Part shown: one piece after another, positions 8,877-58,738 of the stretch
Numbering within the stretch: the stretch's first letter is position 1
How the letters are laid out: each line of letters opens with the position of its first letter
Source: a virus
Taxonomy: Duplodnaviria; Caudoviricetes
Length of the DNA: 58,811 bases
Strand: one strand, 5' to 3'
Virus record (IMG/VR): IMGVR_UViG_3300030328_004676
Location: 1 to 58,811 of that record
The notes under the pieces: model-generated
The model's input: only the letters and a program-made list of their open reading frames with translations
Told to the model about the DNA's origin: nothing
The model's database searches: none
Translations under genes and position numbers: made by a program

Positions 8877-8905
8877 ATATTACAGAAGCTCCATTGGTTT
8901 GTCAA
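8877..8905 (-). promoter_or_regulatory. sigma70-type promoter, leaderless, for the polymerase genes
   Basis: TTGACA-17nt-TAATAT-6nt-GTG(8870). Confidence 0.65.
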
Positions 8906-14697: not shown

Positions 14698-14725
14698 AGT
14701 ATAACGGCATGTGGACTTAAGTCAA
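14698..14725 (-). promoter_or_regulatory. sigma70-type promoter, leaderless, for the replication operon
   Basis: TTGACT-16nt-TATACT-6nt-ATG(14691). Confidence 0.65.
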
Positions 14726-15778
14726 TAGCTCAATGTCATGTTTTACCATTTTATTAACTAACTGAATAAAATTTGTTTTGGGTTTCCAGCCAAGCTCTGT
14801 TCTGGCTCTCTCTGAATCGCCCCAAAGTAAATCAACTTCTGCGGGGCGGTAGAATTTAGGATCAACTTCCATCAGTAAATCATCACCGTGATAATATTTT
14901 ACTTCTTCGCCATGACCCTCCCACCTGCAAATGTTTCTATGAAAACCAGCAAAATTAAAAGCTTCTTCAACAAACTCTTTTATAGTGTGTGTTTCGTTTG
15001 AAGATAAAACATACTCGTCTGGTTTGTTTTTCCAAACGTGCGTCCAGTGTTCTTCTTGATTTAGCATTTTCCAAATGCCGTCTACAAAATCTTCTGCGTC
15101 ACTCCAATCTCTTTTAGAATCTACATTGCCTAATCTTAAAGGTTCAAAGTTTTCTTTTCGAGCAAATTCATCAGCAATGCGAGCTACATTTTGAGTAATC
15201 TTTCTGGTGACAAATTCTACCCCTCTTCTGGTTCCTTCGTGATTAAATAGCCATCCTTGAACAGCATACAAGTTGTAAGAATCTCTATATACCTTAACCA
15301 AGTGTCTTGCAGCACATTTAGAAGCTCCGTATGGGCTTCTAGGACGCAGTGGATGTTCTTCTGATTGAGGTTCTGTAATAACGTCCCCAAACTCCTCAGA
15401 GCTACCTGCATTGTAATATCTGCAATCTGGAACGTGTTTTCTTATAGCCTCTAGCTGATGAAGAACCGCCATACAATTAGTTTGCATGTGATTAACTGGC
15501 ATTTGCCAACTTGTGCCTACAAATGAATTAGCAGCAAAATTTATAAAGTAATCAGGCTTGTGCTCAGAGATAACTCTATCAATGTTTTCAGCGTCAGTGA
15601 CATCTAAATCAATTAAAAAGAATCTTGGGTTATCTAAGAGGTGTTCTATGTTTTCATGATTTTTAACACTAAGTCTCCTTACCCCGCCTATGACTGTATG
15701 TTCAGTATTGTTGATTAAGTAGTCCACCATGTGACTACCGTCTTGACCTGTTACTCCTGTTATAATTACTTTCTTCAT
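14717..15778 (-). CDS. gmd: GDP-mannose 4,6-dehydratase
   Basis: ITGVTGQDGS, PRSPYGASK, LFNHE, FVTRKIT, GNVDSKRDW, RPAEVDLLWGD. Confidence 0.93.
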   Translation of the reverse strand: MKKVIITGVTGQDGSHMVDYLINNTEHTVIGGVRRLSVKNHENIEHLLDNPRFFLIDLDVTDAENIDRVISEHKPDYFINFAANSFVGTSWQMPVNHMQTNCMAVLHQLEAIRKHVPDCRYYNAGSSEEFGDVITEPQSEEHPLRPRSPYGASKCAARHLVKVYRDSYNLYAVQGWLFNHEGTRRGVEFVTRKITQNVARIADEFARKENFEPLRLGNVDSKRDWSDAEDFVDGIWKMLNQEEHWTHVWKNKPDEYVLSSNETHTIKEFVEEAFNFAGFHRNICRWEGHGEEVKYYHGDDLLMEVDPKFYRPAEVDLLWGDSERARTELGWKPKTNFIQLVNKMVKHDIELLT

Positions 15779-16434
15779 TAAGTATTTTTTTTATATAAAA
15801 ATTCTGCAAATTCAAACTCTAGCTCTGTATCAATATCAAAAGCTTCTTCTTCTCCTAGTTTAATAAAAAATGGTCTTTCGCCGATTGCGTTTCTATTTTT
15901 AATCATAGTTTCTTTACTAAGTATCGAAACGCCGTAGTGGACTGCTAAAATTTCTGGCAAATCTTGGCTATTTGGTGCGTTTTTTGGTTCATAGTTAATT
16001 GGTTTGCCATCCAACCATAAATGATTTTTTACATCAAAAGCCGTCATTACGCTGTCGAAGTCTTCTAAATCTTGATAAAGATCAATGCCTTTTTCAATAG
16101 TATCATCTTTTATAAACGGGCATGTAACGGGGGCATACATAATATGCTCTGCTTCTGTAACCTGACCTATATGTTCAAAGTATTCGCTATTGTTTACAAA
16201 TGAGCTACAATAGTAATCATCTCTTTTTTGCGTATGGACACCTAACTGATCAGCAATTGCTAACATTTCCTCGCAATCAGAATTCACAATAATCTTATGT
16301 AAATTTTTGATTCTCTTGAGTTGAGAAATTTTAAGATTAAGTAAGTTTGTGTCACCAAACGGTTTAATATTTTTTTTAGGCACTCTTTGAGAGCCTTTTC
16401 TGACGGGGATAACTGCTGTAACCTCTTTATTCAT
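15778..16434 (-). CDS. Acylneuraminate cytidylyltransferase family (NeuA/CMP-sugar synthetase)
   Basis: AVIPVRKGSQRVPKKNIKPF, TCPF, SQDL, DIDTELEF. Confidence 0.85.
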   Translation of the reverse strand: MNKEVTAVIPVRKGSQRVPKKNIKPFGDTNLLNLKISQLKRIKNLHKIIVNSDCEEMLAIADQLGVHTQKRDDYYCSSFVNNSEYFEHIGQVTEAEHIMYAPVTCPFIKDDTIEKGIDLYQDLEDFDSVMTAFDVKNHLWLDGKPINYEPKNAPNSQDLPEILAVHYGVSILSKETMIKNRNAIGERPFFIKLGEEEAFDIDTELEFEFAEFLYKKNT

Positions 16435-16813
16435 TTATTTTAGCAATGGTTTTCTCCCAAGACTTGAATTCTATCGCTTTGTCGTCTATGTAATAACAAG
16501 CTCTAGGTTTTTCACAAGTTATCTCAGAAAAGAATTTTTTTAAATCATACTTCTCTAGCCATTCCTCCACAAGCTGTAACCCAGTTTTTCCATTAACTAA
16601 GGGTCTATCTTTCTTAATCTTCGCAGTGAAGATAATTAAATTATACTTTTCTGACAAAAGCTCTATCGCCTCTCTTGTTCCCTCAATAGGTTCTCCATAG
16701 CAAGTGCCGTCATGATAGCCCTTATCAAAAGTATGTATGACTCCATCGAAATCTATGGCTAAATTATTAGCTTGAGATTCAAGCCCATCGGGAACATGTT
16801 TTATTTCTTGCAT
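16427..16813 (-). CDS. Small HAD-superfamily phosphatase
   Basis: IDFDGVI, IIFTA, KP..YIDDKA. Confidence 0.8.
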   Translation of the reverse strand: MQEIKHVPDGLESQANNLAIDFDGVIHTFDKGYHDGTCYGEPIEGTREAIELLSEKYNLIIFTAKIKKDRPLVNGKTGLQLVEEWLEKYDLKKFFSEITCEKPRACYYIDDKAIEFKSWEKTIAKINE

Positions 16814-17364
16814 TTTTTTAAAATAGAAGGGCAGTCTACTCCATAACCCTTAATTAATTGATAGGTTAGAGCTAGGGAAAGCATTTCGGAAACATGATAA
16901 TATTCCACATTTTGAACAACTTTTATGATATTTGGGTTCCCGCACGGATTATATTGAGCGGAGATCATAGCTGTATCAATACCTTGGTCATCAGCCCAAT
17001 TCAGAGCGTTGACTATGCTGTTTGCGGATTCATTGTTTAGTGAGCAGGAGAAGGCAACCACAAGGCAGTTATTTTTGTTTAAATATTTTGTCCTGATATT
17101 TAACCAATTTTTAATCCAATTGTGGAAATTGTCATCTGCTATAAAGGATGTTGCTACAATTGCACTAGAAGGGCTTATGATGTTTTTGTCTGACAAGCGG
17201 CAAGAATCAACTGCCGCATGATCAGCAACAGCCATATTGCCACCATGTCCTAAAAAGAAAATGTTTTCAGCTTTATTGTAAGAGTTTTGTAGTTTTTCCC
17301 ACTCGGTTGAGTTGATGATTCTATCAAAAGTTTCCTCAAAGTTTTCTAGTTCTAGTTTTCTCAT
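16801..17364 (-). CDS. SIS-domain sugar isomerase (GmhA-like)
   Basis: IFFLGHGGNMAVADHAAVD, VAFSCS, YHVSE. Confidence 0.7.
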   Translation of the reverse strand: MRKLELENFEETFDRIINSTEWEKLQNSYNKAENIFFLGHGGNMAVADHAAVDSCRLSDKNIISPSSAIVATSFIADDNFHNWIKNWLNIRTKYLNKNNCLVVAFSCSLNNESANSIVNALNWADDQGIDTAMISAQYNPCGNPNIIKVVQNVEYYHVSEMLSLALTYQLIKGYGVDCPSILKKCKK

Positions 17365-18104
17365 TTTTTATTTATATTTATTTTAAATAAAAGCATAACC
17401 CCAGATTGATTGGAAAATGTTTCCACTCCACTCCACTCTGTAACTCTAGTGAAATCAGTGGGATTAGTTGGTGGATAATCTTCAAGTTCATCAAAGATTA
17501 TAGGAACATAATCGAGTTTGGATTTAGTCTTTTCCACAAAGTCTTTAGCCCAAGAACAAAAAGAATCAAATTTATCTAGCTGTTGAGGCACTCCAACATA
17601 GATTGTTTTTTTACCAGTAATGTTAGAATAAATGTGCTCAATTATTCTTGGATCAATTTCAAAGGTTATATACAAATAAAACAAATCAAAATGATTTAAT
17701 TTGTCAATATCAAGAATATCATCACATATAACCTCTCTTGGGCAGGAATATTTCCTATTCAAGCTTTTTTCTATGATATCAAAAAATATTTCAATAGACG
17801 TTAAGCTTTTGCAATAACGAGAAAGACCCTCACAGATCTCACCCTTGCGAGACCCAATATGCAAAACATTCTTATTTTTTAAATCATCTTTTATAAAGAA
17901 TGGAGTCATTAAAGGATATCTCCAATTAATATGTTCATCACTTTTAATTTCTTTTTGTAAATTAAAATTGTTAGACTTTTCTGCTAATGCTTTTAGCTTT
18001 TCCTTGAACAAGGACTTAAATTCAGGATAACTTATTTTCTGGCTTTCTAAATCAGGAAACCATTTGAATAGAGGGTGGCTTTTCGGCAATACTATCTCTT
18101 TCAT
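17361..18104 (-). CDS. Putative SAM-dependent methyltransferase-like protein
   Basis: VLHIGSRKG..LTSIEI motif I/II-like. Confidence 0.5.
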   Translation of the reverse strand: MKEIVLPKSHPLFKWFPDLESQKISYPEFKSLFKEKLKALAEKSNNFNLQKEIKSDEHINWRYPLMTPFFIKDDLKNKNVLHIGSRKGEICEGLSRYCKSLTSIEIFFDIIEKSLNRKYSCPREVICDDILDIDKLNHFDLFYLYITFEIDPRIIEHIYSNITGKKTIYVGVPQQLDKFDSFCSWAKDFVEKTKSKLDYVPIIFDELEDYPPTNPTDFTRVTEWSGVETFSNQSGVMLLFKININKK

Positions 18105-18751
18105 TGTTTTATGTCTTTAAATAAATCTTTAAGTCCAACTGGATTTACAGAAATTATTTCTGTCTCAAGGTTGTTGTTTTTTATAAAATTTTTAGCCTCT
18201 TCCCAGCCGACTTTGTAAATATCATATGAAGCATCTCCGCTGTTTATGATTGGTTTTCCATCAAAACACACCTTCTCATTGCAATCACAACCTACTATGT
18301 ATATTGTTTTAACACCTGTATAAAAAAGAAAATTTAAAGCATGAAAAATCACAGAAACTCCGCAAGTGGCGTTTTCAGAAATGTCTAAGTTAAAGCGAGG
18401 CGGCATCATGTTTCTGACTGACATTGGATAAGCCCCAAATGACTCAACTTCTTCTGCTGAGTAATGTAATTCATGAGGAGAACCATCGACTTCACTGGCT
18501 CCAAATTTAGCTATCTTTACATTAAAAGACTTGTCCATACACCTGCCCCTGTCTCCAAAAAAATAATAATCTAATTTTTGGTGATTATCCTTAGACTGGT
18601 CAAATAGTTCAAAATCGCCTACATAATTTACGCCAACATAAATATCTGCGTCAATGTGTTTATACTTATTTAAACTTGCTCCACTTCCAAACAAGACCGC
18701 TTCTTGTCCTTTATGTTTGTTTTTAAATTGTTTAAAAATTGAGTTTATCAT
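18101..18751 (-). CDS. Maf/DUF115-like putative glycosyltransferase
   Basis: FKNKHKGQEAVLFGSGASL, VGVN, GVKTIYIVGCD. Confidence 0.7.
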   Translation of the reverse strand: MINSIFKQFKNKHKGQEAVLFGSGASLNKYKHIDADIYVGVNYVGDFELFDQSKDNHQKLDYYFFGDRGRCMDKSFNVKIAKFGASEVDGSPHELHYSAEEVESFGAYPMSVRNMMPPRFNLDISENATCGVSVIFHALNFLFYTGVKTIYIVGCDCNEKVCFDGKPIINSGDASYDIYKVGWEEAKNFIKNNNLETEIISVNPVGLKDLFKDIKQ

Positions 18752-19468
18752 CTAAATATCTCTAAAATTTATAGAAGTAATATAATCTTCGCGGCCAATA
18801 AGATCAACAACTTTTTCAAAGTCACTTCTGAGGGATTTGTGTTTTAAGCCATGAAAAACAAAAATGGCAGATTCATCTGAACTCATTCCGTCCACATCTT
18901 CAACGAAATCTTCATACCTGTAAATAAAATTAAATATACCTTTAACTTTAATCAAAAAGTTATTTTCAGAGTCTTCGGGATATTTTATTTTTGGTCTTGG
19001 GTTTTCAGGTTTTTCCAGAAAATCCCATCTTGTCCAATCTGGTTCACCATAATCGTAACCTGTTCTAGCGTGGGTAAATCCAGCCGACTTTACAATATCT
19101 GCGACTCTTGAGTCTGCATAATATGCGGGATAGGCAAAAGTGTTAATTTTTTTAACTCCGTATTTAGTCAAAATTTCGTTCATTGAAATTAACTCATGTA
19201 ACACCTGATCATTACTACCAACTTGAGTTAAGTTAGGATGACTTACTGTATGGCTCCCTATTTCAAAACCCTGTTCTTCAAATTCTGGCAAAAGATTAAG
19301 ATCAATCAGAGGTTCGTTTAAACCTAATTGAGTAGCAACGGAGTGGTTTTCCCACATATTAGCAGTTGATATAAAAAATGTCCCCTTTAAGCCCTTGTCT
19401 TTTAAAACATCTTTCGCCCAAACATGGCTTTCAAGACCATCATCAAATGTTAGACATATTTTTTTCAT
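18752..19468 (-). CDS. Polysaccharide deacetylase (NodB/CE4)
   Basis: LTFDDG, GTFFI, EIGSHTVSHPNL, FAYP, FVFH. Confidence 0.88.
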   Translation of the reverse strand: MKKICLTFDDGLESHVWAKDVLKDKGLKGTFFISTANMWENHSVATQLGLNEPLIDLNLLPEFEEQGFEIGSHTVSHPNLTQVGSNDQVLHELISMNEILTKYGVKKINTFAYPAYYADSRVADIVKSAGFTHARTGYDYGEPDWTRWDFLEKPENPRPKIKYPEDSENNFLIKVKGIFNFIYRYEDFVEDVDGMSSDESAIFVFHGLKHKSLRSDFEKVVDLIGREDYITSINFRDI

Positions 19469-20189
19469 TTTTTATAAATTTTATTTTTGGGTCAACAATT
19501 GCTTCAACTGAAGTTATAATACAAGGATTTTTGTCATCTCCGAAAAAGTGAAATCCTTTTCCGTCATGAAATATTATGCGAAAATCTTTTGTATGATCAA
19601 GAACTTCTCCGTATTCAAAAAACAGATTTGTATGATATACTTGCCCTTCTGAGTAAGTTAACACTAAATCTTTATCAGTAAAAGGCAGTTTACCGTGATC
19701 TGATATTATCCTTTTAAGTATTTCTTTAGAAGTTCCGTATATGGATACTGAAGCGTGTTTTCGGTAATAACCGTCATAGTTTTGTGATACGGCGGCGATC
19801 ATAGATGCGTTATCTATAGAATAGAATTTTTCTTTAAAAATTGTATCGAAGTTATCTTTACAAAAAATAAAGTCATCCTCCGAAAATATAAAGAAATCAA
19901 AATCATCTATAAAAATGTCAACAGCATGAGAGTATGCGCCGTAAGAGATCCCTACATTCTCTCTTGAAAGAGTGACAAATTTAAATTTTTGTTTAAGAGG
20001 TAAGACCTCCTCTTCATAGCCTTCGGGAATATCTCCGTTAATAACAAAAGTTATCTGATCGAGGTCGTGTTTTGTATTACATAAATACTCTACTTGTTTT
20101 TTTAAGAAAAAAAACTTATCAGTTTTTGCTTCTTCAATTTGCTTTCTCCTTTCTCCAAAGTAGAAAACTTTTACAAGATTTGTTTTCAC
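19443..20189 (-). CDS. Putative GT-A fold glycosyltransferase
   Basis: RENVGISYGAY, FIFSEDD; operon context. Confidence 0.6.
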   Translation of the reverse strand: MKTNLVKVFYFGERRKQIEEAKTDKFFFLKKQVEYLCNTKHDLDQITFVINGDIPEGYEEEVLPLKQKFKFVTLSRENVGISYGAYSHAVDIFIDDFDFFIFSEDDFIFCKDNFDTIFKEKFYSIDNASMIAAVSQNYDGYYRKHASVSIYGTSKEILKRIISDHGKLPFTDKDLVLTYSEGQVYHTNLFFEYGEVLDHTKDFRIIFHDGKGFHFFGDDKNPCIITSVEAIVDPKIKFIKNEKNMSNI

Positions 20190-21274
20190 TAAAATTTATT
20201 TAAAATTCTGGTTATTTTGGCTGCTTGGTCTTCTTCTACCCACCATCCAACAGGAATGTTTAGTAATTTGGAATCAAATTCATTTAAATTTTTAAGGCTC
20301 TCATTCCTTCCTCCAAAAACCGAATATTGATCGTTTCTAACATGAACCCTGTCAGAGTCTACTCCGTTGTCAGCGAGATAAGATTTTAAGGTTTCTCTAT
20401 CTTCTGTTAAAATAGAATAAATCCAACTGGAGCTTACCGTATTGTCAGGTTTTCTCATTTTTGTAATCTTAGGATTACTAATGTGTTTATCATAATGGTT
20501 TCTGTTTCTGATATGGCCGTGTATGATAAAGTCAATATTTTTAATATTTTTTAAGCCTATTGCAGCGTTAATATTATTCATGTGATATTTGTATCCTGAC
20601 TCTGTAATATCTTGGTCCCATCGACTTTTCCCTTCAAATTTTCTATCTAGCCCAAACCATCTTATTTTTCTAGCTCTTTCTGCGTCTTCTTTATTTTTAC
20701 ATGAAAGCGCACCACCATCTCCACAAGTCAAGTGCTTTATAGCTTGGAATGAAAAACACACAAAGTCTGAATGAGATCCTATTCTTTTCCCTTTATATGA
20801 TGAACCAAAAGCATGGGCTGCATCTTCAATAACTTTTATATTAAATTCTTTTGCTATATCGTTAATTTTATCAATCTCGACTGGTTGTCCAGCCCAGTGA
20901 ACAGCTACGATTGCTTTTGTTTTATCTGTTATCTTAGACCTGATACTTTCGGGACAAATATTGCCTGTCGTAATATCAATATCTGCGAAAATAAGCTTGG
21001 CCCCCATATTATAAAACGGCTCATTAGTAGCCATGCAGGTCATTGCTGTAGTTATTACCTCGTCCCCCTTTTCTATTCCAGACAAGATGCCAGCCAAATG
21101 TAAGGCAGAAGTCCCACTATTTGTTAGAGATGTATTTTTATTACCAATATATTGAGATACTTTATCCTCAAAGTCGTCTGAATATTCGCCCTCTGTGAGA
21201 CATCCTTTTTCAAAAATATTAGAAAGCACCGAAGAACAGTCTTCCGACATAAATGGTTTAAATAATGAAATCAT
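20189..21274 (-). CDS. DegT/DnrJ/EryC1/StrS sugar aminotransferase
   Basis: NSGTSALHLA, VIEDAAHAFG, SFQAIKHLTCGDGG. Likely start is MISLFKP at 21274 (ORF track gives 21295). Confidence 0.9.
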   Translation of the reverse strand: MISLFKPFMSEDCSSVLSNIFEKGCLTEGEYSDDFEDKVSQYIGNKNTSLTNSGTSALHLAGILSGIEKGDEVITTAMTCMATNEPFYNMGAKLIFADIDITTGNICPESIRSKITDKTKAIVAVHWAGQPVEIDKINDIAKEFNIKVIEDAAHAFGSSYKGKRIGSHSDFVCFSFQAIKHLTCGDGGALSCKNKEDAERARKIRWFGLDRKFEGKSRWDQDITESGYKYHMNNINAAIGLKNIKNIDFIIHGHIRNRNHYDKHISNPKITKMRKPDNTVSSSWIYSILTEDRETLKSYLADNGVDSDRVHVRNDQYSVFGGRNESLKNLNEFDSKLLNIPVGWWVEEDQAAKITRILNKF

Positions 21275-21279
21275 AAAAT

Positions 21280-22293
21280 TTATTCTTCTAACCAATGCTT
21301 GTTTTGTAGAGTCCAGTCAACTGTTTTTTGTAAGGTTTTATTAAAGTCAACTGGAACCTTCCATCCTAAATCTTCTAGTTTATCTCCATTAAGTGCATAT
21401 CTTAAATCATGAGCGGGTCTTTTTGAGTGATAGTCAGTCATCTCATATATAGCTTTTTCTCCCATAATTTCGGAAATTATTTGGACAACTTCTAGATTTG
21501 ATAGTTCTTTACATCCCGAGATATTATACCTTCCGATGGATGAATCATGACTATCAAGAATTTCGCATGTGTTTTTCAACACAAAAACAAAAGCGTCAGC
21601 AACATTTCTGGCGTGAATGTAAAATCTGCTTCCAGCTTTTTTGCCATCTGGATAACAATGAATATGTATTTTTTCTTTATTTAAAATTGATTTAATAACC
21701 TTTGGTATAAATTTTTCAGCGTGTTGCCTCTCTCCTATAATGTTCATTGTGTTTGTAATGACAATAGGGATGCCATATGTGTTGCAATATGATTCACAAA
21801 TACTCTCACTGGCAGCTTTTGAAGCAGAGTAAGGGTTACCACAATTAAACCTGTCTCCCTCTTTATACGCAAATCCTTCTGGAGCGTTGCCGAAAACTTC
21901 GTCTGTAGAAAAATACATAAACTTTTCTAAGTTTTCGCAATGCGATCTGGCGAATTCTAACAAATTTAAAGTAGAGTCTACGTTATTTTTGGTGAAGTCT
22001 TTTGGATCTAAAATAGAATTTTCTACATGCGACTCAGCAGCAATGTGTAAAATGTAACTTGTGTCTTTTAATTCTTTTACTAAGCCCTCGGGTATTTCTG
22101 AACACAAATCAAAAGTAAACATTTTTAACCTAGGATTGCTTAAAGCCGCAGTTTCTTGCAGCCTAGAAAGCCCGAAAGAAGAATAGCTTAACTTATCAAT
22201 ACAATAAATGTCCCAGTTAGTTTTTTTTAAGATATGATCAATAACGTGGTGTCCCACAAACCCGCATCCTCCTGTTACAATAACTTTTTTCAT
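21280..22293 (-). CDS. rfbB: dTDP-glucose 4,6-dehydratase-like (RmlB)
   Basis: VTGGCGFVG, DKLSY, HIAAESHV, STDEVFG, NPYSASKA, RPAHDLRY. Confidence 0.85.
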   Translation of the reverse strand: MKKVIVTGGCGFVGHHVIDHILKKTNWDIYCIDKLSYSSFGLSRLQETAALSNPRLKMFTFDLCSEIPEGLVKELKDTSYILHIAAESHVENSILDPKDFTKNNVDSTLNLLEFARSHCENLEKFMYFSTDEVFGNAPEGFAYKEGDRFNCGNPYSASKAASESICESYCNTYGIPIVITNTMNIIGERQHAEKFIPKVIKSILNKEKIHIHCYPDGKKAGSRFYIHARNVADAFVFVLKNTCEILDSHDSSIGRYNISGCKELSNLEVVQIISEIMGEKAIYEMTDYHSKRPAHDLRYALNGDKLEDLGWKVPVDFNKTLQKTVDWTLQNKHWLEE

Positions 22294-22745
22294 AACTCAA
22301 TTCTCATTTCAATACTTTCTTTATTGTCTATCATTTCTCTTCTAGTCTCTACAAAACCCAGCTTTCTGTATAAATTTAAGGCCACTTGATTTTTAGTTAG
22401 AACTTTAAGATAAACTTCTTTTATGTTAAGATTTTTTTTTATTTTATCTAAAAATATTTTATATGCAGTTGTAGCCAGACCTTTCCCTCTCCAGTTTTTA
22501 TGAATATCTAAGCCTATAAAAAAATTCACATCCTCAATACTGGTTCTAAAATAGCCAATTTTGTCGCCAGCAAATTCTAAAATAAAAAACTTTGGTCGTT
22601 CTTCTTCAAACCACTTAAGAGATTCGTCTAGGGAATACTTGCTTTGATCGTGCAAAAAAGAAGAACACTCATTTCGTAAACAATTGAAAAACGGAATGTC
22701 TTTTTTTCTCATGCGACGAATAGACATTTTATCTTCAATACTCAC
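22290..22745 (-). CDS. GNAT N-acetyltransferase
   Basis: WRGKGLA, N..ALNLYRKLGF. Confidence 0.85.
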   Translation of the reverse strand: MSIEDKMSIRRMRKKDIPFFNCLRNECSSFLHDQSKYSLDESLKWFEEERPKFFILEFAGDKIGYFRTSIEDVNFFIGLDIHKNWRGKGLATTAYKIFLDKIKKNLNIKEVYLKVLTKNQVALNLYRKLGFVETRREMIDNKESIEMRIEL

Positions 22746-23509
22746 CTTAATATTCTCTTTAAAATTTTTCTTCTGGCTTGAGTTGTTTTGCGATGGTTTT
22801 TACAGGCATATTTAACATGGTCCTTATTAAAAATATTCTCTTTAACTGTTTTTTTAGATGCAGGACTTATTTCATGTATACCAAAACTCTTATAAAAATC
22901 TCTATCGGTATATGCGAGGTGTTCTGTGCAAAACATAGAGGATACTTCGAATGGCGCAAACTTTACACCTCTTTGTTCTAGTTCTTCTCTTAAAAGGTAG
23001 CAAGATATAATGTCTTCTTGTTCATTGGGGTTTTCTAATGATTTAAGATAATTTCTGGATTGTAGATATATGTTTCTTAATTCAGTGCAAAACTTTTTAG
23101 ACCTCAAAGAAAATCCTCCGTTCCCAGAACAAATCTCATGCTGATATCCACCTGCATCAAAAGGAGCACCCACATAATCATATCTTAAAAAGATATCGGT
23201 CCAAGAATCTGGGTTTGCTATAAATCCATCGCGATGAAAATTTAACATAAACTCAGAATCAAACATTTCTGGATAATACAGAATGACAAATTCCGAGAAA
23301 GTTTCATACTTTACTTCTGGTATTTGAATGTATTCAACATTGTCATAAAAGACAGATGGTGTTTTATGGGTAAATACTCTTCTTTTAGCAAAATCAAGGA
23401 CTCCATTATCTGCATTTGCTAATTTAGATATAGAGTCTATGCCTGAATTTTTTTTCTTGCTAAGATCATTCCCATAAACGCTTAGGTATGTCACATCATT
23501 AATTGTCAT
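22742..23509 (-). CDS. DUF5672-like putative glycosyltransferase
   Basis: YDYVGAPF, GNGGFSLRSKK, ED, SFGIH. Likely start is MTIND at 23509. Confidence 0.7.
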   Translation of the reverse strand: MTINDVTYLSVYGNDLSKKKNSGIDSISKLANADNGVLDFAKRRVFTHKTPSVFYDNVEYIQIPEVKYETFSEFVILYYPEMFDSEFMLNFHRDGFIANPDSWTDIFLRYDYVGAPFDAGGYQHEICSGNGGFSLRSKKFCTELRNIYLQSRNYLKSLENPNEQEDIISCYLLREELEQRGVKFAPFEVSSMFCTEHLAYTDRDFYKSFGIHEISPASKKTVKENIFNKDHVKYACKNHRKTTQARRKILKRILR

Positions 23510-24377
23510 TATATTTCTCGTATAAATTAATAATGTTCTTCGCAACACTAAATTTAGAAAACTTATGCTGTATTTGAGAAGACCACTCGTCTAGTATAAC
23601 TGATTGGTAGTGAGAGAAATGATTAACTAAGCCGTTGTATGTTTTTGTAACAGATTCAATATTAGGTTCTGCTACGCAGAAATCTGGGCATAATTTTGAG
23701 TTAGGGTTATCACTACAAACAAGCGGGACAGCGCCACAGACCATTGCCTCTAAAGCGGGTAACCCCAAACCTTCAAACTTAGAAGGAAGGGCTACTATTT
23801 TTGCTTTATTATAGAGTTCATTTAAAGACATATCATTAACTAGACCTAAAAAATTATTGTTAGGCTCTACCCCTCCAATTGGGCCAACAATTATTTTTGG
23901 TATATTGTTTAATAGCTCGATTCTTTTGTTTGGATCGTTTGCTCTTCCAACATACAAACAATTTATAGTTTTTTCTACAAGAGGGTCAAAAAATATATCT
24001 TTTATTGGATTCCCTATGTTATGAGATTCTATGCCTATATCTGATAATTGTTTTTTAACTGGCTCGCTAATACAAGTAACAACATTTGCATGAATTAGCT
24101 GGTCTTTTAATTTGTCAATCGGGAAGTCAGGGTTGTGTGGAGGAATATCTAGCACGTTGAAAATTTTAAACCCTTTTTTGGGAAATTGAGAATCTCCTTG
24201 GTATAAAGCGGAATCTTTATGCTGAGTATCTTTTTTACCGAAATCAAAATTATTACAATAAATAAAGTCATAGTCATCTCCGCAAACAACTTCATGACCT
24301 AATCCTTTGAAGCCTTGTTCTATGCGAGGAACTTGACACCAATATTCTTTGGCTCCATATAATTTTACTTTATACAT
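23499..24377 (-). CDS. GT4 (GT-B) glycosyltransferase
   Basis: YVGRANDPNKR, LPSKFEGLGLPALEAMVCG. Confidence 0.85.
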   Translation of the reverse strand: MYKVKLYGAKEYWCQVPRIEQGFKGLGHEVVCGDDYDFIYCNNFDFGKKDTQHKDSALYQGDSQFPKKGFKIFNVLDIPPHNPDFPIDKLKDQLIHANVVTCISEPVKKQLSDIGIESHNIGNPIKDIFFDPLVEKTINCLYVGRANDPNKRIELLNNIPKIIVGPIGGVEPNNNFLGLVNDMSLNELYNKAKIVALPSKFEGLGLPALEAMVCGAVPLVCSDNPNSKLCPDFCVAEPNIESVTKTYNGLVNHFSHYQSVILDEWSSQIQHKFSKFSVAKNIINLYEKYNDN

Positions 24378-25123
24378 TTTACTTTTGGGATGGGTATGTG
24401 ATTTTTTTCATAGAAAGATTCATCGAACTCCAAACAGTGTTTTTCATGATTCCATTTATAACTACAATGTCCAAAATGTTTGTGCTGATATTCGACTTTT
24501 CTTTTTCCTATTCTATCATTGAGCCAAGTATAGTGAGGTATATGGGCCACTTCTTTTGGTATGGTCTCTATCTCCATATTCTCATAACTTATGATTTGCC
24601 CGTTATATTCATAACTTATGTCATTATCCCAATAAAATCCTGCCATCTTGATAGAATCCTTTATATTTGTTTTGAAAATTCTAGGAGGACAGAAGGGTTC
24701 TTCTAGATAATGATCTACATCAAAAACGTGATTTTTTAATGATATTTTAAATAAATTTCTATTGCTTGATTCCACATATTCTTCAATTTTTTCAATATGT
24801 TCTTCTGTATAAAATTCGTCAGAATCAACTAGCCAGATATAATCCAAATCATACTTTTTTAAATAAAACAGAGCATTGTTTCTAGCTTCTGCCTCTGAAA
24901 TATACTGGGGTGTATCTACTAAATATTTAAGCCTCCTTTGCTCAACTAGTTCTCTAAGTAGGTCTGTGGTGTGATCATGAAAAGAATCTATGCCTCTATA
25001 TTCTTTAAATGGAACAGATACAGCCGAGACAATATGGTTATCGCGTTTTAAAAATGGTTCAATAGATTTTAAAACATAATCTTCTGTGTTATAGCCACAA
25101 TATATTATACCATATTTTTTCAT
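24365..25123 (-). CDS. GT2-like glycosyltransferase
   Basis: ARNNAL, WLVDSDEFY, PRIFK, HY. Confidence 0.75.
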   Translation of the reverse strand: MKKYGIIYCGYNTEDYVLKSIEPFLKRDNHIVSAVSVPFKEYRGIDSFHDHTTDLLRELVEQRRLKYLVDTPQYISEAEARNNALFYLKKYDLDYIWLVDSDEFYTEEHIEKIEEYVESSNRNLFKISLKNHVFDVDHYLEEPFCPPRIFKTNIKDSIKMAGFYWDNDISYEYNGQIISYENMEIETIPKEVAHIPHYTWLNDRIGKRKVEYQHKHFGHCSYKWNHEKHCLEFDESFYEKNHIPIPKVKCIK

Positions 25124-25899
25124 AAAGTAGGCCAGATTGGTTTTTGCATATCGTGTTTTTTCTTTCTTGAATCCCCAGACACTACTTCTTCTGGTTCATA
25201 TGATGCATCGTATTTTCCGTTTTTTCTATGGTTCCAAATTTTTCCCCAAAATTTGTTTACATTATTTCTTTTTTCTAAATCTAAATATCCTAAATGAATT
25301 ATTTTAGGGTTAAGGTCATCAAGTTGTATTTTAGCAACACATGGTATAAGATTGCCATTAGAATCTATAAGTTCACAGGTGTCACTTTTTTCAGGATCTA
25401 AACTGCCATCTTCTTTTCTCGCCCAAGCAACAGATCCTCTGTGAGACCCTTCTTTAGTATGCAAATACCATTTTTGACCAATGTTAATGTAATGATCTAA
25501 ATCTTCATACAAATCAATCGTAGGCAACATAATACTGCAAGGGAAGTCATGATCTAAAATAACTGTAGAACAAAGGTCTAATCTTTCTTTGTCTCCTGAG
25601 ATTCGCTCATCTAAATCACATTGTAGCGCAACTTTATTGCGACAGTTTTCAAGTGCTGCGTCCTTTAGTTTACCTTCCCAATAAACATCTGTTTGTATTT
25701 CTAGGTGCCTTGATACAATTCCTATTTTTTTAGGGTCATAAAATTTACTTTTTATAACTTCATTCCTGACTTTTTCGTGCTCCCACCTAAAAGTTGCTAT
25801 AACTATTTCATCAACATAATATAACCAATTAGAAAAGACTTCATCTAAGTCTATATCTAGCTTGTCTATATTAAATAATGTTGTGTATAGAGAAATCAT
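25120..25899 (-). CDS. GT2-like glycosyltransferase
   Basis: VDEIVIA, KDAALENC, QCDLDERI, IIHLGY. Confidence 0.7.
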   Translation of the reverse strand: MISLYTTLFNIDKLDIDLDEVFSNWLYYVDEIVIATFRWEHEKVRNEVIKSKFYDPKKIGIVSRHLEIQTDVYWEGKLKDAALENCRNKVALQCDLDERISGDKERLDLCSTVILDHDFPCSIMLPTIDLYEDLDHYINIGQKWYLHTKEGSHRGSVAWARKEDGSLDPEKSDTCELIDSNGNLIPCVAKIQLDDLNPKIIHLGYLDLEKRNNVNKFWGKIWNHRKNGKYDASYEPEEVVSGDSRKKKHDMQKPIWPTL

Positions 25900-26741
25900 T
25901 TTAAGAAATCAATTGGTTTAAACTTGGAAAAATCGTGTTTATCTATAATTCCCTCTGTTTCTCCTATTATTTTAAGCCTATACCAATCATTTAAAAACTT
26001 ATCGAAATTAATGCAGTCTTTCATGGTATCATCTAAGTGATCTTCTAGGCACTCTTTCATAGAATCATAATCATATGGATCGAACCCTTGCGTGTATACA
26101 GCTTGGAATAACTTCATCCTGTTATTATATCTTTCTCTAACTAAGGGGACATTATCTTCAAAGCCGAGAAATAAATGATTTGTATTTGGGAATAAATAAT
26201 ATTTAAAATTGTGTTCAACAAAATAAAAAGGATCTTGCCTTTTTTCTTTTCTAACATTTTTTTGGAAGGATTTATCCCAAATTTTAAGGTTGGTTAATTC
26301 TACGGTATTTTGGGTTCCAAGTATAGCTTCATGGGGATTACCCTTGAATTCCATTGTTTCGTTAAACCTAAACATAAACCTTTTATCATATATATATGCT
26401 CCATCTATTTTATTGTTTTCAAAGTAACCTATAAGATCCCTTAGCTGTTTTGTGAAATTTGGAGAAAGTCTCTCAAGAGTGTCCATTGTTACAAACCAGT
26501 CGCCTGATTTTATTGGACCTTGGAATAAAGATTGATTCCGACTAAAGTCTGTTCTGTTATTCCATTTACTATAAATAATATCACCGTCTCCTTTAACGCT
26601 TTCAAGATAATCTGCTCCTTCATCTTTCGGATAATGAAATGTCCATACAAGACCATCAAAATCATCTTTAATTGGTTCTATTAATTCTTCAAGGTCTTCT
26701 TTGTGACCCTCTGTTGTTATTCCTATAAGCCAAAGTTTCAT
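25896..26741 (-). CDS. GT2-like glycosyltransferase
   Basis: FSRNQSL, WFVTMDTLERL, GNPHE. Confidence 0.6.
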   Translation of the reverse strand: MKLWLIGITTEGHKEDLEELIEPIKDDFDGLVWTFHYPKDEGADYLESVKGDGDIIYSKWNNRTDFSRNQSLFQGPIKSGDWFVTMDTLERLSPNFTKQLRDLIGYFENNKIDGAYIYDKRFMFRFNETMEFKGNPHEAILGTQNTVELTNLKIWDKSFQKNVRKEKRQDPFYFVEHNFKYYLFPNTNHLFLGFEDNVPLVRERYNNRMKLFQAVYTQGFDPYDYDSMKECLEDHLDDTMKDCINFDKFLNDWYRLKIIGETEGIIDKHDFSKFKPIDFLK

Positions 26742-27475
26742 CCTATTGTTTTTGAATATACCTTGTTAGTGTTAAAAAATGAAAATGGTGTTTTAGAATT
26801 TGTTCTTTTTTTCAAAAGACCTCCTGATACAATTTCACAGTGATAAGTGTCAAGATCTTCTAAATACATCTGGGCCTCTTCCCAAGTATCAAGGACTATT
26901 TCTGTCACGTTTATGTTCGGCTGAAAAGTGAACGTAGGTCCGTTTTCAGTAGAGATAATAGACTGTGTAAATATATCATCATCTTCTATTAAAAAGTCTG
27001 AGTCGGGTTCACCAAAGTCTTTTGCCCTATTGAATCTGACGCATATTGTATCTGGGTTTTTTTCTAAAAAATCAATAGACTTTTTTATAGCGTCTGCTAA
27101 TTCAATCCCCGAAGTTTGTAGTAACTCATCATCTTCTACCCAAAAAGAATATTTTTCTTTTTTAATTTTGGGGTCTGAATATGACTTATAAATATCTTTG
27201 AAGTATCCAGCAGAATGAGTTAGGTGATTTTCTGAGTGGTGAACAATATTTTCTATTGTTTCTAAAACTCTGATGTCTCGATCTTCACAAAAGGTTTTAA
27301 TTTCTTCTGCTATTTTTTCTTCTCCCTCTCTTGTTTTTAAGTGCAGGAGTCTATTTTTAAATATATTTTTATCAACCTTGTCATAAAGATTGTTTATGCA
27401 GTCTTTATAGGTGTGCCTTCCAGCGTGACCCATAGTCGTGCAAAAAATTATTAAGTTAAGAGAAAGTGGATTCAT
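26738..27475 (-). CDS. Putative GT-A glycosyltransferase
   Basis: FWVEDD, VRFNR, FTFQP; operon context. Confidence 0.55.
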   Translation of the reverse strand: MNPLSLNLIIFCTTMGHAGRHTYKDCINNLYDKVDKNIFKNRLLHLKTREGEEKIAEEIKTFCEDRDIRVLETIENIVHHSENHLTHSAGYFKDIYKSYSDPKIKKEKYSFWVEDDELLQTSGIELADAIKKSIDFLEKNPDTICVRFNRAKDFGEPDSDFLIEDDDIFTQSIISTENGPTFTFQPNINVTEIVLDTWEEAQMYLEDLDTYHCEIVSGGLLKKRTNSKTPFSFFNTNKVYSKTIG

Positions 27476-27875
27476 GAATTTTTTTTCTCAAATTTGATGA
27501 TGAAAAACAATGATCTCTAGTATTATAGATTATCTTATGTCTTTTTCCATCTAATTCATAACCAGTAAAATCTTTACCCTTCCAGTCTGAACCAATAAAT
27601 CTAACATCTATATCAATAGATGTTAGTATTTCTAATAAATCATTTTCTGTTTCATACGGAAGAATCTCATTTACAAATTTTGTCGCTTTTAATTGTATAT
27701 ATCTCTCTACCAAAGACTGCACTGGACTATTTTTAAGGCACCTTTCTTTGCTGGGATCTACATGCAGTCCAGCTATTAAAAAATCACACTTAGAAGCACA
27801 TTCCTCAAGCATGAGGATGTGACCAGCATGTAGCAAATCAAATGCGCCACAAGTAAACCCTATTTTTTTAGACAT
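27456..27875 (-). CDS. Glycerol-3-phosphate cytidylyltransferase-like nucleotidyltransferase (TagD family)
   Basis: GAFDLLHAGH, ER, GSDWKGK, R..SSSNLR. Confidence 0.85.
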   Translation of the reverse strand: MSKKIGFTCGAFDLLHAGHILMLEECASKCDFLIAGLHVDPSKERCLKNSPVQSLVERYIQLKATKFVNEILPYETENDLLEILTSIDIDVRFIGSDWKGKDFTGYELDGKRHKIIYNTRDHCFSSSNLRKKIHESTFS

Positions 27876-27909
27876 AAAAACCTCTGGGCCTAGTATCAGA
27901 CCCAGAGGT
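27876..27909 (-). terminator. Intrinsic terminator-like hairpin abutting the start codon of the glycan operon
   Basis: ACCTCTGGGTCT-GATACT-AGGCCCAGAGGT followed by TTTT and ATG (12-bp stem, one G-U pair). Confidence 0.75.
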
Positions 27910-27948
27910 CTACTATGACCTCAAGGAAATAAATCCTCGACCTGTCCT
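27876..27948 (-). ncRNA. Candidate cis-regulatory leader RNA (attenuator/riboswitch-like) or short sRNA
   Basis: ~70 nt between a near-consensus promoter and a terminator, containing overlapping alternative stems. Confidence 0.5.
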
Positions 27949-27977
27949 ATTGTAGAATCAGTTGTCGGGTTTGTCAA
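27949..27977 (-). promoter_or_regulatory. Near-consensus sigma70 promoter
   Basis: TTGACA-17nt-TACAAT. Confidence 0.8.
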
Positions 27978-28097
27978 CTAATCCTCAATAATCTCTTCAC
28001 TGATGCGCCCAAGTATATAGGCGAGTGTTTCATCAGTTTCGAAATCGTTGGGAGGTTTCTCAATTTCCTCATCAGTTATTTTGCTTAGGTCAGTCAT
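27978..28097 (-). CDS. Small acidic peptide (39 aa)
   Basis: Not in the ORF track: MTDLSKITDEEIEKPPNDFETDETLAYILGRISEEIIED; GTGTAG motif 11 nt upstream. Confidence 0.5.
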   Translation of the reverse strand: MTDLSKITDEEIEKPPNDFETDETLAYILGRISEEIIED

Positions 28098-28134
28098 AGT
28101 ATGACTGTCTACACAAAAATTTTTCAAAAGGGAA

Positions 28135-29781
28135 TTAACCCTCGCAAGACGAACAATTTAAAATTGATCTAGCTAATTCTTGACTAGGATTAGCACTTCT
28201 TTGATAATAAAAGCTCTTAACTCCCTGCTCCCAACCAAAAATTAAAAGTTCGCTAACTTGCTTTGGGGGACACTTGGGAGAAATCATTACATTGAGACTT
28301 TGTCCTTGATCAATATATTTTTGTCTTTGGGCGGCTTGTATTACAATCTCCTTTTGGGAAATCTCCCCGAAAGTTTTAAATACATCTTTCTCATGCTCCG
28401 ATAAGAAATCTAAATGCTGAACCGAACCTCCTTTTACTAAAATAGATTTCCAAGTGGTCGTATTGTTTTTACCCTTCTCTTCAAGAAGTTGTTCTAAATG
28501 TGGATTTTTATATGTAAATTTACCTTTAGCTAAATCTTTAGTAAAATAATTACTATTTAATGGCTCAATAGATGGAGAAACTTGACCAAGAATAAATGAA
28601 CTAGATGTAGTGGGGGCAATAGCCATAGTGGTCATATTGCGTTTTCCGTAGCCGCGAAGATGTTCTGGCTCCCCAAATTCTTCTGCTAATTTGGATGTAG
28701 CTCTATCGCATCTTTCTCTAATTATATTATGTATCTCCGCATTTAAAAACTGAGCCTCTAATCCTTCGAAAGCAATATTCTTGGATTGTAGGAGAGAGTG
28801 CCAGCCGAGAACACCAAGACCTAAAGCTCTTTGTCTTTTAGCGAAGTTGTGACAAGACTTCATAAAGGGAATATTTTCTGTTTTGTAGATATATTCCTCC
28901 ATAACTGCATCAAGAAACTGAACAAGAGTTTCAACCGCATCGGTTTCTTTTATTTCGTCCCACCTGAGAAGGTTTAAAGAAGATAAACAACAGACAAAAG
29001 ACTCGTCCTCTGACGAATGCAAAGCTATCTCACTGCAAAGATTAGAAGCATGTATCTTAAGTTTCTTATCCTTGTATGCTTGTGGAGCGTTGTTGTTGGC
29101 ATTGTCTGTAAAAAATATGTATGGATATCCCGTTTCAAATCTTTTCTTTATTACATTCGCCCAAACTTTTCTTTTATCCTTATCTCCGTCTACCATTGAC
29201 CGCATCCACTTATCATCAATGCAGACAGCAAACGACATTTCTTGGATAGGATTGCCTTCGCTTCTAATCCTTAAAAATTCCTCAATATCAGGGTGATCTA
29301 TAGGAAGATATGCTGCGAAAGATCCTCTTCTTACATGTCCTTGGGAAACAATAGACGCAACTTTATCAAATAGCTCCATGAAATAAACTGCGCCAGCAGA
29401 AACTCCTCCCACGCTAATTGGAATCCCTCTTGCTCTTAAATCACCAAAATAGCCCGATGTCCCAGAGCCATGTTTTGTTTGCATTCCAACTTCCGCTTGT
29501 TTGCGGAGAATAGAATCCATTTTATCGTCAACATAAACGCCATTACAGGAAATAGGTAACCCTCTGTCTCTACCAAAGTTAGACCAAACAGGACTAGAGA
29601 GAGAATAAAACCCCCTCTTCATATAATGTTCAAACTTATCCGCAAACCCGCTCTGCCTTAAATATTTTTCAGCAGCCTCTGCGATAGCCCTTATTCTTTT
29701 TTTAGGACTCTCCCCTTTTTGTAAGTAACCTCTTTCAAGGAATTGTTTGGATTCTTCGTTTAACCAATAGTAATCTTTCAT
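28135..29781 (-). CDS. nrdA: Ribonucleotide reductase class I alpha subunit, short form without ATP cone
   Basis: PISC, RRG, SNLCSEI, CCLSSLN, APTTSSS, DQGQSLN, KSFYY, C-terminal CSSCEG. Confidence 0.95.
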   Translation of the reverse strand: MKDYYWLNEESKQFLERGYLQKGESPKKRIRAIAEAAEKYLRQSGFADKFEHYMKRGFYSLSSPVWSNFGRDRGLPISCNGVYVDDKMDSILRKQAEVGMQTKHGSGTSGYFGDLRARGIPISVGGVSAGAVYFMELFDKVASIVSQGHVRRGSFAAYLPIDHPDIEEFLRIRSEGNPIQEMSFAVCIDDKWMRSMVDGDKDKRKVWANVIKKRFETGYPYIFFTDNANNNAPQAYKDKKLKIHASNLCSEIALHSSEDESFVCCLSSLNLLRWDEIKETDAVETLVQFLDAVMEEYIYKTENIPFMKSCHNFAKRQRALGLGVLGWHSLLQSKNIAFEGLEAQFLNAEIHNIIRERCDRATSKLAEEFGEPEHLRGYGKRNMTTMAIAPTTSSSFILGQVSPSIEPLNSNYFTKDLAKGKFTYKNPHLEQLLEEKGKNNTTTWKSILVKGGSVQHLDFLSEHEKDVFKTFGEISQKEIVIQAAQRQKYIDQGQSLNVMISPKCPPKQVSELLIFGWEQGVKSFYYQRSANPSQELARSILNCSSCEG

Positions 29782-30752: not shown

Positions 30753-30841
30753 TTCGTAAAGTTACACATGTTAGAGGGAGCTAAGAAACTCGTCAATCGC
30801 TTTTTCTTAAAAAATTGCCAAAGGCATTAAATTAATATGAA

Positions 30842-30902
30842 CGTATGGGTAACGTATGGAATATTATTTTAATACGTTACCTATACGCTCGTAACCCATA
30901 CG
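30842..30902. repeat. Direct and inverted repeat cluster at the transcription divergence point
   Basis: CGTATGGGTAACGTAT (30842-30857) is inverted as ATACGTTACCTATACG (30872-30887); third partial copy GTAACCCATACG (30891-30902); AT-rich loop. Confidence 0.8.
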
Positions 30903-30994
30903 ATGGATTTTGTTAAAATAGCAATCAAATTTACCATGTCAAGAAAAAAAAATAGTTGATTTTTCCTTGATTTCTCTTATATTAAGAATAACAA

Positions 30995-32660: not shown

Positions 32661-32685
32661 AATGGCACGATTAATGTTATATAAT
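32657..32685 (+). promoter_or_regulatory. sigma70-type promoter for hsp20
   Basis: TTGAAA-17nt-TATAAT-8nt-ATG(32694). Confidence 0.7.
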
Positions 32686-32693
32686 ATAGTATT

Positions 32694-34195: not shown

Positions 34196-34233
34196 AATAC
34201 AATAGATTATCTTTAATAGATTACACGAATTCA

Positions 34234-58701: not shown

Positions 58702-58738
58702 AAAAAAAGAGCCGCCCCTTGCGAGGCGACTCTCTTTT
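58702..58738 (-). terminator. Intrinsic terminator, possibly bidirectional
   Basis: AAAAGAGAGTCGCCTC-GCAA-GGGGCGGCTCTTTTTTT. Confidence 0.85.

Follow-up and report, generated by a model that had tools for sequence, protein, structure and literature searches.

In bacteriophage T4, a helix of the mRNA sequesters the start codons of genes e, soc, 49 and I-TevI, and transcripts coming from upstream are not translated; a late promoter located within the structure yields open transcripts (PMC3014915). In Bacillus velezensis, the LoaP-dependent leader of the dfn operon consists of a small hairpin and an intrinsic terminator placed before a long biosynthetic operon, with factor-dependent read-through; the same portion of the source reports that RfaH binds a sequence of the non-template DNA (PMC12691694). 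We analysed a leader that resembles both of these in IMG/VR virus record IMGVR_UViG_3300030328_004676 (Duplodnaviria; Caudoviricetes), of which positions 1 to 58,811 form the stretch studied here, called the window. It lies on the minus strand between a ribonucleotide reductase module and a 13-kilobase (kb) block of glycan genes, and comprises a sigma-70-type promoter, a 5′ hairpin (P1), a linker of 9 nucleotides (nt) and a long terminator-like hairpin that abuts the first glycan gene (Table 1). The observation that is new in this analysis is that the start codon of this gene is itself buried, through the CAU of the linker. The T4 start-region hairpins are the closest in function, as both have a start codon in a phage mRNA helix (PMC3014915), but in the leader no internal promoter was found, the nearest promoter precedes the entire structure, and the helix is also terminator-shaped. 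The dfn leader is the closest in layout, with its hairpin and terminator before a long operon; no start-codon clamp is described for LoaP in that portion of the source (PMC12691694), no NusG paralog was found in the three partial genomes searched here (G000, G001 and G002; 42%, 77% and 70% complete), and there is no known sequence relation between the two.

The layout of promoter, short RNA and read-through is also that of the PR′-tR′ unit of phage lambda, as is the presence of a small gene directly upstream of the promoter. In lambda, a constitutive promoter gives a short terminated RNA (6S RNA), and expression of the downstream block needs read-through by Q antitermination; for the leader, no Q-family protein was found in the three partial genomes, the upstream open reading frame (ORF) encodes an acidic peptide of 39 amino acids (aa), and nothing like a −10-like pause element is seen close to the promoter. 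JUMPStart/ops leaders, which act with RfaH, stand before variable polysaccharide clusters, and ops is an 8-nt DNA signal. The likeness here is that of a short conserved leader at the fixed edge of a variable glycan cluster, whereas ops has neither a terminator nor a start-codon helix, and no RfaH/NusG paralog was found in the three partial genomes. Finally, small RNAs (sRNAs) of the MicL/DapZ type, which derive from 3′ untranslated regions (3′-UTRs), are transcribed from a promoter within the end of the preceding gene, stop at the terminator that the mRNA of this gene also uses, and carry an unpaired seed that is conserved; the layout is the same, but here the terminator helix abuts and includes the start codon of the next gene in all versions. 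A full-text literature search found no description of this element, and the portion of PMC5628999 that it brought up contains nothing bearing on it.

Conservation of the promoter was measured in loci gathered via NrdA alone, without reference to the leader (80 loci, of which 20 distinct ones were used; NrdA-ascertained loci hereafter). An initial annotation of this DNA had read TTGACA-17-TACAAT followed by a leader and an ATG, and this string is present exactly on the minus strand (27977-27873); from the −10 hexamer to the ATG (27875-27873) runs a 73-nt stretch, AGGACAGGTCGAGGATTTATTTCCTTGAGGTCATAGTAGACCTCTGGGTCTGATACTAGGCCCAGAGGTTTTT, ending in TTTTT. In a scan of positions 20000-38000, the leader promoter was one of three 11-of-12 matches. 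Among the 20 NrdA-ascertained loci, the −35 hexamer was TTGACA in 15, TTGAAA in 4 and TTGATA in 1, and the −10 hexamer was TACAAT in 17 and TAAAAT in 3. Hexamer identity was 0.93 and 0.96, respectively, compared with a mean pairwise identity of 0.55 for the spacer, which is 16-17 nt long and occurs in 15 distinct versions; in the ORF that immediately precedes the promoter, third codon positions have an identity of 0.62, near that of the spacer. The sequence thus has the characters of a sigma-70-type promoter, namely an 11/12 match, a spacing of 16-18 nt, hexamers that are kept and a spacer that drifts. The 5-9 nt that follow the −10 hexamer differ in sequence and length, and conservation sets in at GGUC, which matches the expected start of a transcript from this promoter; transcription would start at about position 27942.

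The 74-nt leader RNA folds at −37.5 kcal/mol, compared with −18.4 ± 3.2 kcal/mol for shuffled sequences (z −5.9; 0 of 200 shuffles equalled it), in a nearest-neighbour model at 37°C, from which the conditions in the marine host may differ. Both hairpins persist in folds of 151 nt and 295 nt. All 7 pairs of P1 are formed in 43 of 43 distinct versions and its loop is variable; one-sided changes turn a G-U pair into A-U in 10 versions, and an A-U pair into G-U in one group of relatives (the L257 group). In the terminator-like hairpin, 14 pairs are formed at 99.5% over the 43 versions, with 5 pairs varying one-sidedly and 3 unpaired cells, and the loop varies in sequence and in length, from 4 to about 18 nt. 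When both stems are taken together (7 + 14 pairs, 43 distinct versions), 99.7% of 879 cells are paired and 3 are broken, whereas partners slid out of register, used as a control, pair in at most 65% of cells. Six stem pairs vary, each on one side only (G-U/A-U, G-C/G-U, U-G/U-A/C-G), and pairing is always kept, in each of the 7 further pair types; variation is concentrated in the loops. In the NrdA-ascertained loci, the outer arms take pair-keeping changes; UCCUUGA-GGUCAUAGU and CCUCUGGGUC are 100% identical in all 20, with 26 invariant central positions. The comparative data support the predicted main fold and are silent on alternative folds. The leader had been described as an RNA of no recognised family, and searches of the window and of three relatives against Rfam 15 gave no match at the gathering score (best match E 0.1, far under that score).

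The wider sample was obtained in several ways. A search with the protein of the first glycan gene returned 7 viral loci, in which the leader is nearly unchanged in 4 (75-92% identity) and absent in 3 (56-70%). Viral contigs were scanned with three DNA patterns, each drawn from a separate part of the element and leaving the rest free. An 18-mer on the linker gave 27 matches, 13 of them true loci and the other 14 chance matches in GC-rich coding DNA; a gapped pattern covering both arms of the terminator gave 23 matches, 22 of them true loci and one (L051) due to chance; with the 14-mer of the 5′ end, ACAGGTCGAGGATT, which is too short to be specific, 119 stretches came up, almost all of them by chance, and one new version, L061, was added. 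The parts left free by each pattern also came back conserved. A gapped pattern of 25 letters on P1 and the linker found 52 metagenome loci; it found none in bacterial contigs representing one genome per species, and no host or prophage copy was seen there. A covariance model built from the 43 distinct versions (R1) matched 25 of 26 loci with an NrdA at least 89% identical, the 26th locus ending inside nrdA, and 0 of 54 loci with an NrdA identity of at most 82%; the element therefore belongs to one clade. In the window and in two relatives, G001 (106.6 kb) and G002 (94 kb), this model matched only the element and its reverse complement, so that the element is present in a single copy. In 62 distinct 350-nt contexts, it always stands after the 39-aa acidic ORF and before one of six different first genes. 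Among GenBank phages, blastn of positions 27300-28500 gave matches to pieces of nrdA only (60-80% identity), and tblastn with the 425-aa ORF at 54428-55705 gave no match.

The hairpin had been suspected to sequester a Shine-Dalgarno-like sequence before the first gene. In the folds it does hide the translation start, and the part that is hidden across lineages is the AUG itself. In longer folds, the CAUAG of the linker pairs with the UUAUG of the start region, and the linker GG pairs with the second codon, UCU. When each of the 52 distinct versions was folded together with 30 nt of the gene that follows it, AUG-CAU pairing was present in the minimum free energy (MFE) structure of 50 of them. 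Opening positions −15 to +12 costs 18.5 kcal/mol, which ranks 1 among the 58 ORFs (median 6.25, standard deviation 3.2), and the AUG has a probability of 0.05 of being unpaired. By the fold in 50 of 52 versions and by this rank, the start region therefore has the property of the T4-type hairpins, a start codon inside a helix. About 49 of the 58 ORFs have no GGAG-, GAGG- or AGGA-like motif within 14 nt of their start, and their upstream regions are A/T-rich; phage and host evidently initiate mostly without Shine-Dalgarno pairing. Hiding the AUG would hence be the relevant block, and the GAGGU sequence need not be a ribosome site. The earlier proposal that a Shine-Dalgarno sequence is sequestered thus holds for the sequence, as GAGGT does lie in the 3′ arm 4 nt before the ATG, but its role in initiation is doubtful when about 49 of 58 ORFs do without such a motif.

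The position of the start codon is constant. The ATG directly follows the U-run in all versions in spite of six first-gene families among relatives: a cytidylyltransferase, a carbamoyltransferase, a 244-aa protein of no named family (which resembles the product of the second gene in the window), an ATP-grasp protein, a GT2 protein and a 279-aa protein, also of no named family. Four unrelated families start with Met-Ser (AUGUCU) and pair with the linker GG; in the L257 group, the gene start AUGAUU pairs with GGU, which gives 8 contiguous pairs; in a third type (L254), a perfect 9-nt complement of the linker, ACUAUGGCU, is found just inside the new gene, the real start of which is 7 nt further on. 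The predicted clamp is thus re-made when the downstream gene changes (AUGUCU with GG, AUGAUU with GGU, or ACUAUGGCU). In locus L254 (3097-3110; also in L061 and L186), the ATG that follows the U-run opens a frame of 15 codons only, and the 279-aa gene is in another frame; this ATG would therefore be kept as part of the RNA element.

The terminator-like hairpin of the window has 15 pairs, 7 of them G-C, a loop of 4 and a T-run, and is the best terminator-like site in positions 20000-38000. Tails were scored by what is reportedly the rule of d'Aubenton-Carafa: the window leader scored 4.27, relatives 2.85-3.76 and the terminator at 58703 5.3, with a background 95th percentile of 2.44. A GC-rich stem-loop followed by a U-run is the sequence signature of an intrinsic terminator; most relatives have a U-run of U4, and others one that reads UUU, UUUC or UUUCU, hence only 3 in some lineages. 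The hairpin is probably a site of partial termination in all versions, less so in lineages with a short tail. The only other comparable hairpin in the window (58738-58703, minus strand) is a canonical A-tract/GC-stem/U-run structure of 16 pairs; there (58738-58672, minus strand) the terminator is followed by a promoter-like TTGATA-17-TATCAT and then by a gene, which is the usual order. At the leader this order is reversed, with the promoter before the terminator, an unusual arrangement in which every transcript of the leader promoter would meet the hairpin.

The stems of the leader had been proposed to be mutually exclusive. Such an alternative is present, since GAGGTC (27922-27917) and GACCTC (27910-27905) are able to form a helix closed by a 6-nt loop, but it has no evolutionary support of its own. 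GAGGUC:GACCUC can form in 43 of 43 versions, with four invariant pairs and with the sixth pair in 19 of 43; the letters of GAGG:CCUC are also needed by the terminator, which would by itself impose their invariance. The pairing of the 5′ AGGTC with GACCT, also proposed initially, is present as well, and the first hairpin shares 2 nt with GAGGTC. As a helix, 5′-AGGUC:GACCU was rejected: its outer pair is broken in 5 versions, its inner pair is absent or mismatched in 24 of 43, and it is weaker than GAGGUC:GACCUC. When alternative conformers were checked, the nascent RNA from G 27942 to the top of the hairpin folded into three small hairpins at −23.5 kcal/mol, namely a shortened P1 (P1′), GAGGUC:GACCUC and an inner hairpin; after synthesis of AGAGGU, the terminator fold prevailed at −33.7 kcal/mol.

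From these observations we infer a model that we prefer to the others and consider about evenly poised between right and wrong, in which the leader is a cis-acting, default-off element, made of a leaky terminator and a start-codon clamp, for a swappable glycan block, and is released via an alternative fold held by a factor. A host-type sigma-70 promoter would start the RNA at about 27942, and this RNA would fold into P1 and the long GC-rich hairpin. Most polymerases would stop at the U-run, giving an RNA of about 65 nt. In read-through RNAs, and in RNAs coming from the upstream reductase operon, the hairpin would be extended by pairing of GG-U-CAUAG of the linker with UUAUG-U-CU; a helix of about 22 base pairs (bp) would then enclose the first gene's start codon, and ribosomes could not load. 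Because the 18 genes overlap or abut, low initiation at the first gene together with termination would keep the whole block low. Release would most likely consist of a shift to P1′, GAGGUC:GACCUC and the inner hairpin, which would free both the U-run and the AUG. The alternative fold would be held by a putative trans-acting factor reading the invariant central segment, and a factor that held the three-hairpin fold during synthesis of a few nucleotides would allow read-through and open the start together.

Few parts of marine phage genomes vary as much as the glycan blocks that they carry. If the leader acts as proposed, a single RNA cassette (promoter, 5′ hairpin and start-covering terminator), nearly letter-perfect amid drift, would control any cargo placed behind it. 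Such a cassette would give a testable handle on the timing and dosage of phage glycan genes, on how translation is controlled in hosts whose initiation dispenses with Shine-Dalgarno pairing, and on the way regulatory elements mark the fixed edge of swappable gene islands. The leader is a candidate for a new Rfam RNA family, and might provide a compact off-by-default part for synthetic use.

Several points weigh against this model. The alternative fold is about 10 kcal/mol weaker than the main fold and has no independent support. Searches for NusG (PF02357), CsrA (PF02599) and Phage_antitermQ (PF06530) gave 0 matches in G000, G001 and G002; the PF02357 controls were positive in 11 of 14 genomes, and the PF06530 search, carried out with E up to 1, covered this Q family only. 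A Pfam search of 81 further ORFs of G001 found no RNA-binding or antiterminator family. Covariation, which had been suggested as a check of the structure, was not found: none of the 21 stem pairs shows two-sided compensatory changes in the 43 versions, and shuffles score as well as the data, which leaves invariance, one-sided changes and thermodynamics as the basis of the structure. Patterns drawn from the element itself supplied much of the wider set, an ascertainment that inflates the invariance, and the NrdA-based set amounts to 20 distinct loci of one clade. CAU-AUG pairing is missing from the MFE structure of 2 of the 52 versions, and termination may be weak in the lineages where the U-run is UUU or broken by C. 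The lengths of the two flanking spacers are linked in the 43 versions, with the pairs (3,3) in 3, (3,4) in 15, (4,4) in 14 and (4,5) in 11, and neither (3,5) nor (4,3); the L257 group has (4,3), 4 nt versus 3 nt, and the link is therefore a tendency and not a rule. Last, a strong, conserved promoter whose transcripts brake themselves is odd, unless the short RNA is useful.

A useful short RNA is the basis of another explanation, which we regard as possible but unlikely: the locus would be a phage sRNA gene of the 3′-UTR type, about 65 nt long, which has its own promoter, shares the terminator of the reductase operon and acts in trans through the linker GGUCAUAGU, the glycan block depending on leakage through the terminator. 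A strong conserved promoter does lie about 65 nt ahead of the terminator-like hairpin, and promoter and terminator would together bound a short non-coding RNA of about 62-67 nt with the layout of a 5′ hairpin, an invariant unpaired linker and a 3′ hairpin, the invariance of which exceeds the needs of pairing. In addition, the linker (GUCAUAGU) is perfectly complementary over 8 nt to ACUAUGAC, which spans the start codon of the 39-aa ORF; neither sequence varies in any lineage examined. A free-standing sRNA does not, however, predict that the hairpin abuts the ATG in every version and that the partner of the linker is re-made at new genes, and the U-run is down to 3 in some lineages. The duplex with the start of the 39-aa ORF (−16.6 kcal/mol) is no outlier among minus-strand windows (best about −22 to −25), and several other start regions pair over an equal length when G-U pairs are allowed. 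The sequence ACTATGAC occurs 6 times in the window (1.09 expected; 0 of 100 shuffles reach 6), at 9916, 19773, 24267, 28093 and 56385 on the minus strand and at 27912 on the plus strand. Two of these copies lie on start codons, that of the 39-aa ORF and that of a PD-(D/E)XK nuclease gene (8880-9920). In G001, the sequence is kept only at the start of the 39-aa ORF and in the leader's own complement; the absence of the extra copies there speaks against this explanation. The stand-alone sRNA of about 70 nt that the initial annotation gave as its alternative may exist as a by-product or as a second function of the leader. Cis and trans action might also be combined, read-through copies being clamped in cis and the terminated RNA of about 65 nt, which would be abundant, serving as an anti-start-codon RNA that pairs with ACUAUGAC via GGUCAUAGU, and possibly with host messages. 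We find such a bifunctional leader rather improbable; if true, it would couple the reductase module and the glycan block in a single feedback circuit, in a host whose initiation makes no use of Shine-Dalgarno sequences.

The element might instead be fixed and unregulated, an explanation that we also judge unlikely without dismissing it. It would be the terminator of the reductase operon and a promoter setting a constant low expression of the island, or an RNase III-type site that opens the start constitutively. The position of the terminator-like hairpin, directly after a conserved early module, fits the former, and the extended helix, at about 22 bp, matches RNase III substrates in size; neither a trans factor (NusG, CsrA and Q families, three partial genomes) nor evidence for a ligand pocket was found. 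A plain terminator or processing stem should nevertheless drift with compensation at a spacer divergence of 0.55, and here 26 central positions are invariant; moreover, it would need neither the promoter-before-terminator order nor a conserved P1. Temporal control as described in T4 for genes e, soc, 49 and I-TevI (PMC3014915) would have early RNAs carry the hairpin, and a late promoter inside the structure, read by a phage sigma factor, yield open RNAs. G001 does encode a protein with sigma-70 region 2, and the invariant central DNA segment is placed where a late promoter would be. This explanation is nevertheless very unlikely: a scan for sigma-70-type sites, from which the sites of another sigma factor may differ, found none on the minus strand at 27948-27873; the loop at the expected −10 is free to vary and lacks a TA-rich hexamer in some lineages; and 10-mers of the invariant segment do not recur ahead of other genes in the window or G001, where only scattered one-mismatch copies were found. 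The initial annotation proposed a ligand- or protein-controlled switch; one form of it would be a riboswitch for a nucleotide sugar, CTP or a similar small molecule that flips the terminator. Mutually exclusive helices exist, the downstream genes are glycan genes, and phage-borne cis-RNAs before glycan genes, the manA and wcaG motifs, are known. Even so, Rfam searches at E up to 10 and at the gathering score supported no family, the sole candidate aptamer outside the terminator is the 7-bp hairpin with its variable loop and no covariation, and among the 43 versions no conserved junction, pseudoknot or long-range pairing was seen, both loops varying freely. With an alternative fold about 10 kcal/mol weaker, and a first gene, hence a pathway logic, that differs between lineages, a riboswitch is the explanation to which we give the least credence.

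Two other assignments were considered. Targets of ANTAR-type proteins consist of two tandem hairpins with hexaloops in which the first base is A and the fourth is G; the P1 loop of the leader, UUUAUU, does not follow this rule and is variable, only the loop AUAGUA fits, and Rfam gave no match. An integron attC-like or recombination site, in which a GTTRRRY box is expected, was rejected, as the element is present in a single copy, no integrase was seen, and no such box was found by eye.

The window is a 58.8-kb part of the virus record, with an estimated completeness of 42% and a G+C content of 33-40%; a tRNA search of it found none. Its sampled words were present at 94% in one sequencing run and at 24-28% in two runs of other studies, all of them labelled as marine metagenomes; no RNA run containing positions 27400-28400 was found. 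Upstream of the leader, the class I ribonucleotide reductase genes are followed by the 39-aa acidic ORF, the peptide of which (MTDL...ETLAYILGRISEEIIED) is conserved throughout the relatives examined and matches no Pfam family. This ORF has no Shine-Dalgarno motif, its start lies within a small hairpin (CAGUCAU-ACU-AUGACUG), and its stop codon TAG abuts the −35 hexamer, the TAG-TTGA junction being found in 61 of 62 distinct contexts. Downstream, the glycan operon of 18 genes announced by the initial annotation was recovered as 18 ORFs (27875-14717) in which all junctions overlap or abut. Since this block has no gaps, the leader is the sole non-coding stretch able to control its 13 kb, in agreement with the view that a structured, promoter-driven and strongly conserved leader is the only non-coding control region ahead of it. 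Nine of the 18 ORFs are glycan or sugar-nucleotide enzymes above Pfam cut-offs, and the enzymes named are cytidylyltransferases, GT1, GT2, GNAT, two dehydratase/epimerases, a DegT aminotransferase and a deacetylase. Replication genes lie beyond the glycan block, and tail and head genes at the opposite end of the window.

Table 1. Features of the leader and of its surroundings (positions in the window).
Feature	Position	Strand	Basis or remark
−35 hexamer TTGACA	27972..27977	minus	promoter scan
Promoter spacer, 17 nt	27955..27971	minus	length kept, sequence free
−10 hexamer TACAAT	27949..27954	minus	promoter scan
Discriminator and inferred transcription start (~27942/27941)	27941..27948	minus	variable, 5-9 nt in relatives
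Hairpin P1, 7 bp: UCGAGGA / loop UUUAUU / UCCUUGA	27921..27940	minus	folds
Linker, 9 nt, GGUCAUAGU	27912..27920	minus	identity 1.00 in 20 NrdA-ascertained loci
Terminator-like hairpin, GC-rich, 14-15 bp, loop 4-6 nt	27911-27878	minus	fold and scan
Alternative helix GAGGUC / loop AUAGUA / GACCUC, candidate antiterminator	27905..27922	minus	nascent-RNA MFE
U-run, U5 in window	27876..27880	minus	abuts ATG
ATG and second codon TCT of first glycan gene	27870..27875	minus	enclosed by extended helix
nrdB	30752-29781	minus	class I ribonucleotide reductase; Pfam PF00268, E 2.4e-47
nrdA	29781-28135	minus	class I ribonucleotide reductase; Pfam PF02867, E 1.5e-96
39-aa acidic ORF ('orf49' when read from TTG at 28127)	27978..28097	minus	after nrdA; MTDL...ETLAYILGRISEEIIED
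Glycan block, 18 ORFs	14717..27875	minus	every junction overlapping or abutting; 13 kb without gap
First glycan gene, cytidylyltransferase	27875-27456	minus	ATG 27875-27873

In G001, the glycan block (57291-63573) has 8 genes, compared with 18 in the window. Both blocks end with a GDP-mannose 4,6-dehydratase gene, and each is therefore a variable island between fixed edges. G001 also contains a 2646-aa ORF (25712-33652) without a Pfam match, and the protein with sigma-70 region 2 (227 aa; 103755-104438) is encoded next to PhoH. In the window, the interior of nrdB carries another 11-of-12 promoter-like sequence, TTGACA-16-TACAAT (29890-29917, minus strand), about 110 nt ahead of the nrdA start. 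Two of the NrdA relatives (L283 and L290) were observed near both ends (2802-6845 and 192165-196208) of one viral contig of 196,877 bases, an arrangement that points to a long terminal repeat or to concatemeric assembly.

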